Of a stretch of DNA of 60,482 bases, positions 27,354 to 28,791 are shown piece after piece; within the stretch, counting starts at the first letter, position 1; each line of letters opens with the position of its first letter. Origin of the DNA: Candidatus Staskawiczbacteria bacterium. GTDB lineage: Bacteria; Patescibacteriota; Minisyncoccia; Minisyncoccales; Staskawiczbacteraceae. A program made the translations under genes and the position numbers. Under the pieces are notes generated by a model, which saw only the letters and a list, made by a program, of their open reading frames with translations, was not told the origin of the DNA and searched no databases. Location: positions 1-60,482 of the forward strand of contig JAPLZF010000016.1 of assembly GCA_026395175.1 (NCBI GenBank), read 5' to 3'.

Positions 27354-27685
27354 ACAAGTTTTATATGTATTTTTCTTAATTCCTTATTAATTTCAGCATA
27401 ATTTGGAATTGCTTTCGCTACCAGCGCCCAAAACTTTTTTGAATGGTTTAATTGCCCCAAATGGCACAGCTCGTGCACAATCAAATAATCTGCCAGATAT
27501 GGCTTTAAATAAATAATTTTATAGTTGAAATTTAAATTTTTCTTTGACGAACAGCTCCCCCACCTTGTACTGGTATTTTTTATTGCAACCCGATTTATCT
27601 CAAACTTATAAAATTTATTAAAATAACTTAGTCTGTTTTCAACGAAAATTCTCGCAGTTTCCCTATTTGTTTTGCTGAATCTCAT
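27350..27685 (-). CDS. DUF45/YgjP-like metal-dependent hydrolase (short form)
   Basis: WGSCSSKKNLNFNYK and HExxH-containing LIVHELCHL. Confidence 0.7.
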   Translation of the reverse strand: MRFSKTNRETARIFVENRLSYFNKFYKFEINRVAIKNTSTRWGSCSSKKNLNFNYKIIYLKPYLADYLIVHELCHLGQLNHSKKFWALVAKAIPNYAEINKELRKIHIKLV

Positions 27686-28076
27686 TTAATTTTTTCAATA
27701 TTTCGCTTAGTTGGTTGGTTTCAATGTGAGCAATGGCTTTTTGCAATTCTTCAATCTCCTCTTTTGCCTCAACGTTTGTCTTAAAATCTTCTGCTGCCTG
27801 AAACCGGTCCCTGTCGTTTTGCCTGTTTTGCGACATCATAATAATTGGAGCCGAATAAGCTGCCTGAGTAGAAAACAAAAGATTCAGCAAAATAAACGGA
27901 TATGGGTCCCAGCGGTAAACGTAAGCTATAATATTAAAAGCCACCCAAACAGCCACAATAATTGTCTGGACAATTATAAACGCCCAAGAACCCATTCCTT
28001 TTGCCAGCCCGTCGGCAACCTTCTGCCCCGCCGACAAATGCGACACGTGTTTTTCATGCCAAGTTTTATTTTCCAT
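27663..28076 (-). CDS. DUF1003 membrane protein
   Basis: WDPYPFILLNLLFSTQAAYSAPIIMMSQNRQ motif. Confidence 0.8.
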   Translation of the reverse strand: MENKTWHEKHVSHLSAGQKVADGLAKGMGSWAFIIVQTIIVAVWVAFNIIAYVYRWDPYPFILLNLLFSTQAAYSAPIIMMSQNRQNDRDRFQAAEDFKTNVEAKEEIEELQKAIAHIETNQLSEILKKLNEIQQNK

Positions 28077-28210
28077 AATTTTTTAATTAATTATATTATT
28101 TTATTTTACCACAAAAAACACAAAACAGCTTGAACTCTTGAAAGTTTCAAAAAGATTTAGTAACATTAAAAAACATTCCGATGTAGCTCAATGGTAGAGC
28201 AACTCCCTGT

Positions 28211-28722
28211 GAGAGTTCTTTAAAACGTCATATAATAAATATATGACAGAAAAAAGAAAGTATGCTGATCGACGAGAAGAATTAATTAAAGCCGTCGCGA
28301 AACGAAGGCGAAAAATTAAACTTCTCTCGATACAATATAAAGGAGGTAAATGCCAAATTTGCGGGTATAACAAATATCCCGGAGCGTTAGACCTTCATCA
28401 TATTGATGGCAAACAAAAATCTTTTGGCATTGGCGATAAAGGATACACAAGGTCTTGGGAAATAACCAGGAAAGAATTAGACAAGTGTATTCTTGTTTGC
28501 GCAAATTGCCATAGAGAAATTGAAGCCGGCATTACGCAGCTTCCAAAGGAAACTTTGGGATGAATAATCTCGGGATAACGGTGAAACCCTGAAATGGGCA
28601 ATACCGTGGGAACCTCGCTTTGCGAGGAGCGCCGTAGAGACTAGATACCGAGGTGCCTAAACTTTAAGATAAAAGCATGGCAATGATATAGTCCACCCCC
28701 AATGGTAACATAGGGATAAGTG
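28211..28722 (+). mobile_element. group I intron (IC3-like) carrying an HNH ORF
   Basis: The 5' exon ends in U and the intron ends in G. GTAGAGACTAGA (28634-28645) pairs via GACTA with TAGTC (28689-28693), like the J8/7-P7 of tRNA group I introns. Confidence 0.7.
28243..28563 (+). CDS. HNH homing endonuclease (intron-encoded)
   Basis: 106 aa. CQICG ... LDLHHIDG ... LVCANCHREIE. Confidence 0.85.
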   Translation: MTEKRKYADRREELIKAVAKRRRKIKLLSIQYKGGKCQICGYNKYPGALDLHHIDGKQKSFGIGDKGYTRSWEITRKELDKCILVCANCHREIEAGITQLPKETLG

Positions 28723-28765
28723 TAAGGAGTGGGTTCCAGGTTCGAGTCCTGGCATCGGAGCAAAT

Positions 28766-28791
28766 AAAAATCCCCTTCCGGGGATTTTTTT
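28766..28791. terminator. bidirectional terminator
   Basis: TCCCC-TTCC-GGGGA stem, flanked by an A-run and a T-run. Confidence 0.7.

Follow-up and report, generated by a model that had tools for sequence, protein, structure and literature searches.

A tRNA-Asn(GUU) gene of a Candidatus Staskawiczbacteria bacterium probably split by a group I intron with an HNH endonuclease gene in its P1 loop

The stretch of DNA analysed here, called the window below, comprises positions 1 to 60,482 of contig JAPLZF010000016.1 (assembly GCA_026395175.1), from a Candidatus Staskawiczbacteria bacterium of the Patescibacteriota. It holds a tRNA-Asn(GUU) gene that is very probably split by a group I intron with a complete fold, and the loop of the intron's first helix, P1, carries the gene of an HNH endonuclease. 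From a comparison of sequences we infer that the intron splices itself out, that the HNH gene is expressed separately and that its product is involved in homing. The two halves of the tRNA lie 512 nt apart and an open reading frame (ORF) for 106 amino acids starts at intron nucleotide 33, as an earlier note on this DNA, made from its letters alone, had recorded.

The basic object is already on record: group I introns in tRNA-Asn and mobile introns with an HNH gene are both known, and the intron type is common in bacteria of the Candidate Phyla Radiation (CPR), or Patescibacteria. Williams (bioRxiv 2020, 10.1101/2020.01.27.920355) extended the four classical settings of bacterial tRNA introns to 21, and the seed alignment, gpI.sto, has a row Pam37.Asn.4Ug besides Tyr.4Ug and Asp.4Ug rows with a CUGU/GCAG P1. 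The belief, expressed in the earlier note, that such introns are limited to the Leu, fMet, Ile and Arg tRNAs can thus be dropped. Nor are they all ORF-less, as the same note had it: the tRNA-fMet intron of Synechocystis PCC 6803 encodes I-Ssp6803I (Bonocora and Shub, 2001, cited in PMC3984707; Zhao et al., 2008, cited in PMC3943268). That intron differs from ours in its tRNA and its site, in an enzyme of the PD-(D/E)XK rather than the HNH family, assayed while the HNH protein of the window is known from its sequence, and in belonging to cyanobacteria and not to Patescibacteria. On genes within introns the preprint says only that long introns may contain them; the HNH gene and its position in P1 are not described there. 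On tRNA-Asn introns in CPR bacteria, a literature search turned up only this preprint and a single line in Lui et al. (2021, PMC8172020), which mentions group I introns in some of the tRNAs that complete CPR genomes encode, and it found no description of an HNH gene in P1 of a tRNA-Asn intron or of free-standing relatives beside tRNA-Asn.

The ribozyme core and its long-range P1

Relatives were gathered with patterns taken from the window's own protein and core, so that the frequencies given below are those of our samples and not of nature. Eighty loci (L001-L080) were fetched through the HNH protein from GTDB species representatives, where HNH relatives occur at 349 places. In a search of 751 nt of the window, the Rfam model Intron_gpI (RF00028) matches positions 28511-28715 with E 1.9e-9 and 42.6 bits. 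Of 20 sister introns that interrupt the tRNA at this site, 15 exceed the gathering score of 50, with 51.7-95.2 bits; those that fail it are L030 and four with cores like that of the window (L001, L002, L004, L031). We label this compact core type A, and more of its kind were collected with an 18-mer over J6/7-P7-J7/3.

An alignment of 63 distinct type-A cores, from guide to omega-G, yields an RNAalifold consensus with helices P2, P3, P4, P5, P6, P6a, P8, P8a and P9, where 30 of 40 pairs show compensatory changes. With P7 included, 94.2% of the cells are paired, against 75.5% after shuffling (none of 500 shuffles reaches the observed value) and 33-45% with slid partners; the covariation score of the alignment is 0.544 versus 0.195. 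P7 contributes nothing to it, being invariant in a set chosen by an 18-mer that covers it. The window itself makes 43 of the 46 consensus pairs, two of the misses coming from a one-column register shift in P6a and the third from P9, where A faces A. That helices are maintained by compensatory changes in many lineages requires their folding to be under selection. The structural hallmarks of a group I intron are found, namely helices P3 to P9 with the pseudoknot P7, a P1 with a U.G wobble and an omega-G (G28722) just before UAA; the earlier proposal of a group I intron in a tRNA is supported by the Rfam match, significant though under the gathering score, by covariation in P1 and from P2 to P9 and by the scores of the sister introns. 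That proposal had leaned on GTAGAGACTAGA, whose GACTA (28639-28643) pairs with TAGTC (28689-28693), 50 nt apart. Both motifs are indeed present, while the label J8/7 was wrong: GTAGAGACTAGA is J6/7 followed by the 5' strand of P7.

As for the subgroup, J6/7-P7 and J8/7-P7' resemble by eye the Azoarcus row and the core is devoid of P5abc and P7.1/7.2, a resemblance, and only that, to IC3. Azoarcus tRNA-Ile and cyanobacterial tRNA-Leu introns of that subgroup share with the window a P1 with a short guide, P2 and a compact P3-P9 core; J6/7-P7 (GUAGAGACUAGA) and J8/7-P7' (AUAGUCC) are, by eye, near-identical between the window and the Azoarcus row Aol6.Ile2.5Ug of the seed. Those introns are however ORF-less, about 200-250 nt long and placed in other tRNAs and at other loop positions. 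The class to which the intron of the window belongs is Asn.4Ug, in which a tRNA-Asn(GUU) is interrupted behind position 4 of its loop (CUGU/UAA), the 5' exon ending in U and the intron in omega-G. With the row Pam37.Asn.4Ug it has in common the tRNA, the site, U(-1)/G(omega) and a 3' end of the form ...GAUAGUCCACC-P9-AUAAGUG. The seed row differs in being ORF-less and in a core with P7.1/P7.2-like inserts, as in relatives that we call type B; the window core is closer to the rows Mba143.Tyr.4Ug and Pgr210.Thr.2Ug.

The first helix had escaped notice. The earlier note saw no convincing P1 with a U-G wobble and suspected an unusual 5' architecture, and both points have to be revised: the last four nucleotides of the 5' exon and the first of the intron (CUGU|G) pair with an internal guide, CGCAG, from which they are separated by 325 nt; it is found further downstream, where the HNH ORF ends (Table 1). 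The ORF therefore sits in the P1 loop, and the architecture is simply that of an insertion there. Every related intron has GCAGC followed by the P2 hairpin, 310-354 nt into the intron when it bears the ORF and 6-10 nt when it does not. The ORF-less relatives start as N-(3 to 10 nt)-N'GCAGC, then P2, and their P1 is CUGU-N / N'-GCAG. The four exon pairs of P1 cannot covary because CUGU is fixed by the tRNA. The pair that flanks them, between intron position +1 and the nucleotide just before GCAG, can form in all but two of 73 loci (G-C 58, A-U 11, G.U 2; unpaired 2), and the type-A set has G-C 27, A-U 25 and C-G 9 times at this place, C-G being found in ORF-less introns. Two other candidates for P1 were rejected: a guide ACAG at 28247-28250, within the first 60 intron nucleotides, gives U-A and not U.G, and a pairing of exon AACUC with intron GAGUU is not conserved in L001.

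On such a fold, a pre-tRNA transcribed from upstream would splice itself by two guanosine-dependent transesterifications, cut at its 5' site after the wobble U28210 and at its 3' site after G28722. The predicted product is 72 nt long and would read ...CUGUUAAGG..., with loop CUGUUAA.

The HNH gene, its promoter and its relatives

Membership of the HNH family is visible in the catalytic His...Asn...His motif with two CxxC zinc-binding pairs: C37-x2-C40, H52-H53 and C86-A-N88-C89-H90 (CxxC...HH...CANCH) are invariant or nearly so in sets of 31 and 78 homologues. A basic N-terminal segment, Y-x-D-R...AVAKRRRK, is invariant in the homologues as well. The protein matches PHROG 2255, 'HNH endonuclease' (E 3.8e-30). 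A search of NCBIfam with it gave no match, and a sequence search of the PDB just weak ones to En domains of group II intron proteins (E 0.014 and 0.2). Its C-terminal codons, G-I-T-Q-L-P-K-E-T-L-G, are encoded by the guide and P2; free-standing copies of the gene are without the QLP tail. In its HNH motif, its small size and its place in an intron loop it resembles the phage intron enzymes I-HmuI, I-TevIII and I-PfoP3I (PMC3428280).

The gene appears to have a promoter of its own within the intron. In 58 of 78 loci the ATG is preceded, at a distance of 6-9 nt, by a TATAAT-like hexamer (at least 5 of 6 matches); no other offset occurs more than four times, and 37 of these 58 boxes have a TGn extension. 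The RNA copy of the box pairs with the start codon in a hairpin that reaches, in the window, a minimum free energy of -7.6 kcal/mol (z -5.3); of 69 intron-borne relatives, 57 have their AUG paired in such a hairpin (mean z -2.5). As the -10 box itself pairs the start-codon region, the hairpin is possible only in transcripts that start upstream of the box. We infer that the HNH mRNA is leaderless or nearly so, made from the internal promoter, and that the start codon is masked in the read-through pre-tRNA, where the -10 sequence would pair with AUG and block translation. Such a block would keep ribosomes off P1 and P2 of an RNA that is due to splice.

The family forms 2189 homologous clusters at 90% identity, the source names shown being mostly those of Patescibacteria lineages, and the GTDB loci come from many Patescibacteria lineages with a few Omnitrophota and Elusimicrobia bins. 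ARAGORN calls a split tRNA around the ORF or just downstream of it in 76 of these 80 loci. Nine have a free-standing HNH gene directly upstream of tRNA-Asn. Eight of them (L031, L050, L055, L059, L061, L066, L067 and L079) have an ORF-less intron of 174-397 nt, with HNH at about 1501-1810 and the 5' exon from about 1830-2090; the ninth, L072, has an intronless tRNA-Asn at 1816-1888. In the remaining loci the ORF lies within the intron, three of them being cut by a contig end or a deletion. As a case in point, a quartet with identical exons has the ORF in P1 twice (L049, L051) and upstream twice (L050, L061), with a promoter-ORF block common to all; the proteins of L050 and L051 share 86% identity. 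Because the free-standing gene keeps a degenerate guide-plus-P2 tail, it is suggested that HNH moved out of the intron, at least in this quartet.

From guide to omega-G, L001-L080 display at least three kinds of core behind the same HNH/P1/P2 module and before the same P7'-P9 end: the compact type of the window, a type with inserts between P7 and P3', and a GGGCUAAUUCGGGG type, as if introns that share a site had exchanged modules. The type-A core, with an identical 18-mer (CCGTAGAGACTAGATACC), is also found among L081-L200 in tRNA-Asp(GUC) (L083, L097 and L110, for example) and tRNA-Tyr(GUA) (L139, L142), always ORF-less, at the same site after CUGU and with the same GCAG guide. All type-A hosts have GUN anticodons, which fits a spread to sites matching the 4-nt guide.

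Three of the GTDB loci show further features. In L079 (1790-2100) the stretch between the free-standing HNH gene and tRNA-Asn contains 13 nt copied from the 5' end of the tRNA (TCCGGGGTAGCTC), a short hairpin and a GIY-YIG ORF of 82 aa (Pfam, 58 bits), its stop codon overlapping the start of the tRNA, so that two nuclease families adjoin this one tRNA gene. In L072 (1889-1986) the intronless tRNA-Asn is followed by a second copy of CTGTTAAGGATAAGGTCGTAGG, the part from the anticodon loop to the T stem, and then, after unrelated sequence, by a further GGTTCGAATCCTACC; the picture is that of a partly duplicated tRNA, for instance a scar left by integration. In L071 (756-1345), a Berkelbacteria bin, the 5' exon, ORF, guide and core as far as P7' are followed directly by the T arm, with P9 and the 3' anticodon stem missing, so that the locus is either a decayed copy or an assembly error.

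Phages have the gene too. The phage contigs of IMG/VR contain 274 HNH relatives of 46-70% identity, inside phage tRNA arrays, a situation that recalls the homing endonucleases of phage tRNA clusters such as T4 SegB (PMC13096335). In the 80 phage loci L201-L280, many of them on contigs of 100-450 kb, HNH usually lies at 1501-1770, and the nearest tRNA is an intronless tRNA-Asn(GTT) in 53, while tRNA-Asn makes up just 60 of the 457 tRNAs there. That tRNA-Asn often begins about 18 nt after the HNH stop, and HNH is flanked by two tRNA-Asn calls in L205, L213, L224 and L234. SegB itself is a GIY-YIG enzyme. The genomic positions of the family support a link between HNH and tRNA-Asn: the enzyme would nick or cut intronless tRNA-Asn genes near the region of the anticodon loop, and repair would copy the intron in. 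As of 2014, phage tRNA genes, numerous as they are, had no known intron, those of phages all being in protein-coding genes (PMC3984707); the intron of the window is in a tRNA gene.

A free-standing endonuclease working with an ORF-less intron at one site is known as collaborative homing, as in phage T4 mobE/I-TevIII (PMC2790892) and cyanophage psbA F-CphI (PMC6083498; reviewed in PMC3984707), and the model proposes such arrangements as precursors of composite mobile introns. Our family has the same look, with HNH beside tRNA-Asn genes that are either interrupted by an ORF-less intron (the eight GTDB loci) or intronless (L072 and 53 of 80 phage loci). It differs in that the arrangement is known here by comparison only, in CPR bacteria and uncultured phages, and in having a tRNA target rather than a protein-coding gene; it departs from the precursor role in the quartet, where the tail that distinguishes L050 and L061 from L049 and L051 suggests movement out of the intron, at least there. 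We tentatively propose, at slightly less than even odds, that one HNH family is a homing endonuclease specific to tRNA-Asn genes, caught across hundreds of uncultured phage and CPR genomes at every stage from a free-standing gene next to a tRNA-Asn, whether intronless or with an ORF-less intron, to a composite mobile intron with the gene in its P1 loop. It may have moved repeatedly between these states, its promoter-ORF-guide-P2 module being joined with at least three cores, and the -10 box, doubling as an anti-AUG strand, may limit translation to leaderless transcripts and so protect the splicing of a possibly essential single-copy tRNA. Free-standing and intron-borne copies of one family at one tRNA gene make a large comparative set on an old question, that of how endonucleases and introns are joined.

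Alternatives for the protein, the intron and the host tRNA

A number of observations pull against the view that this is a spliced, mobile intron of tRNA-Asn. The Intron_gpI score of the window lies under the gathering score, so that nothing is listed at that threshold. P1 has only 5 bp, with strands 325 nt apart, and its folding may need help. P10 is weak: the UAA of the 3' exon could pair with UUA one nucleotide 5' of the guide, but at the three partner positions 78% of the loci have A, 47% have U and 95% have U, in this order, and the same positions belong to codons of a conserved Ile-Thr. The Pfam HNH model PF01844 gives 18.6 bits (E 0.0021), under its cut-off of 21.4, and an AlphaFold2 model built from a 31-sequence alignment is poor, with a mean predicted local distance difference test score (pLDDT) of 49. 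Finally the HNH protein is conserved beyond what a purely selfish homing gene would lead one to expect, with a ratio of nonsynonymous to synonymous substitution rates (dN/dS) of about 0.07 and identity of at least about 59% across Paceibacteria, Saccharimonadia, Microgenomates, Berkelbacteria, Peregrinibacteria, Omnitrophota and Elusimicrobia bins.

Such conservation leaves room for a role that benefits the host, or for that of a maturase. The protein might no longer be, or not only be, a homing endonuclease, and be kept because it helps to fold the long-range P1 and the ribozyme, maturase-like, or because it attacks the tRNA-Asn genes of competitors or phages; taken as a whole, this alternative seems to us unlikely, though it is the likeliest of the three. 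Pairwise dN/dS values of 0.03-0.11 place the gene, on the sequences compared, under strong purifying selection, and a gene expected to decay once fixed does not usually retain its identity across phyla. The invariant basic segment at the N terminus points the same way, as do free-standing copies that persist beside an intron-carrying tRNA-Asn, where homing gains nothing locally. Against this stands the invariance of every catalytic and zinc-binding residue, which argues that nuclease activity is being kept. Moreover the family adjoins intronless tRNA-Asn in phage tRNA arrays, the classical setting of a free-standing homing endonuclease, and frequent transfer among many lineages would itself maintain selection on a homing gene. 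We know of no HNH maturase.

One may also ask whether the intron is alive. A dead gene, with an insert that has lost its splicing and an intact tRNA-Asn elsewhere to supply the cell, would fit the low Rfam score, and decay does occur, as the missing P9 and 3' anticodon-stem region of L071 illustrate. It is nevertheless very improbable for the window, where both exons are intact and give a canonical cloverleaf when joined, where the P1 guide, P7 and omega-G are preserved, and where all but three pairs of a consensus maintained by compensatory changes in many lineages can form. No intact tRNA-Asn turns up among 74 tRNAs on the window and 120 related metagenome contigs, nor does a tRNA scan of the 60-kb window find another tRNA-Asn gene; elsewhere, complete CPR genomes needed their intron-containing tRNAs for a full set (Lui et al., 2021, PMC8172020). 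Were this the sole tRNA-Asn gene, all decoding of Asn would hang on a ribozyme whose P1 closes over a 325-nt coding insert.

There remains the identity of the tRNA. The earlier note held that a single junction gives a canonical loop; in fact four registers restore a loop of 7 nt (Thr UGU, Thr GGU, Asn GUU and His GUG), and two of them, Thr UGU (28208|28721) and Asn GUU (28210|28723), have U at -1 and G at omega. Its choice of tRNA-Asn(GUU), with the junction CUGU|UAA, proves sound all the same. The pattern CTGT|...G|TAA is found in every related locus listed, with an invariant omega-G, and the bases needed for the Thr or His reading vary (TGT, CGT, AGT, or A at the would-be omega). The intronless gene of L072, with near-identical exons and the loop CTGTTAA, reads CTGTTAAGGAT. 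The body of the split gene has U1-A72 and G73; phage tRNA-Asn genes have U1 in 42 of 60 cases, with A72-G73 as their commonest class (26/60), and intact tRNA-Thr genes on related metagenome contigs have G1 in 25 of 25. P1, the invariant omega-G, the intronless homologue and U1-A72/G73 together place the intron between U35 and U36 of tRNA-Asn(GUU).

That the host should be tRNA-Thr(UGU), with the intron two nucleotides further 5' (loop CU|UGUAA), is the least probable of the three alternatives: ARAGORN does call Thr(tgt) in the window and in many relatives, and the Williams seed labels a very similar core Pgr210.Thr.2Ug, but U(-1) would then face the A of GCAG with no wobble, the U.G pair falling at U28210, the Thr anticodon is unstable among relatives that keep the Asn junction invariant, the first base pair and G73 are like those of tRNA-Asn, and the intronless homologue has a GTT anticodon. 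Among the 120 metagenome loci, no contig has both the split gene and an intact tRNA-Thr(UGU).

The seed row Pgr210.Thr.2Ug has a core of the window's type and a P1 written cuguc/GGCAG, which puts the wobble after the fourth loop nucleotide. It may be a tRNA-Asn site-4 intron mislabelled as Thr site 2, just as ARAGORN does with the gene of the window.

Default ARAGORN and the Rfam tRNA model make no call at the split gene; with introns allowed, ARAGORN reports one split tRNA spanning exactly 28177-28760. Since default searches miss the gene and the intron-aware one mislabels it as Thr, genomes with the element will appear to have no tRNA-Asn. With 349 GTDB places and 2189 clusters of HNH relatives, inferences about completeness and codon usage are affected for many genomes of Patescibacteria.

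Locus layout and flanks

Features of the locus are collected in Table 1. The 5' exon reads TCCGATG TA GCTC AATGGTA GAGC A ACTCC CTGT and the 3' exon TAA GGAGT GGGTT CCAGG TTCGAGT CCTGG CATCGGA G, with a variable loop of 5 nt. The 3' CCA is not encoded, G73 being followed by CAA (28760-28763); many relatives encode GAGCCA. Upstream, TTGAAA-17-TAACAT is a weak candidate for the promoter of the pre-tRNA. Downstream, a terminator-like hairpin was read by eye directly 3' of the tRNA; it is not listed by a consensus terminator scan, and sub-threshold Rfam matches to small RNAs (STnc370, STnc130, SpF41) align their 3' hairpin and U-run onto it.

Table 1. Features of the split tRNA-Asn gene, its intron and its flanks, in window coordinates
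Feature	Positions	Strand	Remarks
Promoter-like site TTGAAA-17-TAACAT	28138..28166	+	Upstream of tRNA gene; consensus scan, 9/12 matches
tRNA-Asn 5' exon	28177..28210	+	Acceptor 5' strand, D arm, anticodon stem 5' strand, loop nt 32-35 (CUGU)
P1 5' strand	28207..28211	+	Exon CUGU and intron G1; U28210, at the 5' splice site, forms the wobble
Group I intron	28211..28722	+	512 nt, between anticodon nt U35 and U36; first nt G, last nt omega-G 28722
Hairpin GUCAUAUA-AUAAA-UAUAUGAC	28227..28247	+	RNA copy of -10 box pairs with HNH start codon
TATAAT -10 box	28231..28236	+	In intron, 6 nt before HNH ATG; scan GTGAGA-16-TATAAT, 10/12 matches
HNH endonuclease ORF, 106 aa	28243..28563	+	ATG to TGA, in P1 loop; last 9 codons in P1 3' strand and P2; stop in J2/3
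P1 3' strand, internal guide CGCAG	28535..28539	+	G28536 faces U28210 as U.G wobble
P2 hairpin UCCAAAG-GAAA-CUUUGGG	28542..28559	+	6/6 consensus pairs compensatory (alignment A1); all pairs form in window
Ribozyme core	28568..28715	+	RNAalifold consensus of 63 sequences; Rfam match spans region
P3	28568-73 / 28648-53	+	
P4	28578-83 / 28602-07	+	
P5	28587-88 / 28597-98	+	
P6	28608-09 / 28632-33	+	
P6a	28613-18 / 28622-27	+	
P7	28637, 28639-43 / 28689-94	+	Pseudoknot
P8	28654-57 / 28679-82	+	
P8a	28662-65 / 28672-75	+	
P9	28699-704 / 28709-14	+	GUAA loop
tRNA-Asn 3' exon	28723..28760	+	Loop nt 36-38 (UAA), anticodon stem 3' strand, variable loop, T arm, acceptor 3' strand, G73
Terminator-like hairpin AAAAAUCCCC-UUCC-GGGGAUUUUU, then U's	28766..28791	+	Directly 3' of tRNA; read by eye

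Three neighbour genes of the window (26739-28076) have counterparts in L001 (2111-3094), a Candidatus Staskawiczbacteria bin, with protein identities of 68-78%; by eye they code for a LUD-domain protein, a YgjP-like protein and a DUF1003-like protein. They lie on the opposite side of the tRNA in L001, so that the tRNA-intron unit is arranged differently in the two genomes. By this likeness of sequence the neighbours place the window near Paceibacteria. At some distance, and unrelated to the intron, the minus strand carries a full-length match to the Rfam LOOT RNA (RF03000) at 59178-59296, with 84.2 bits (E 1.9e-14).

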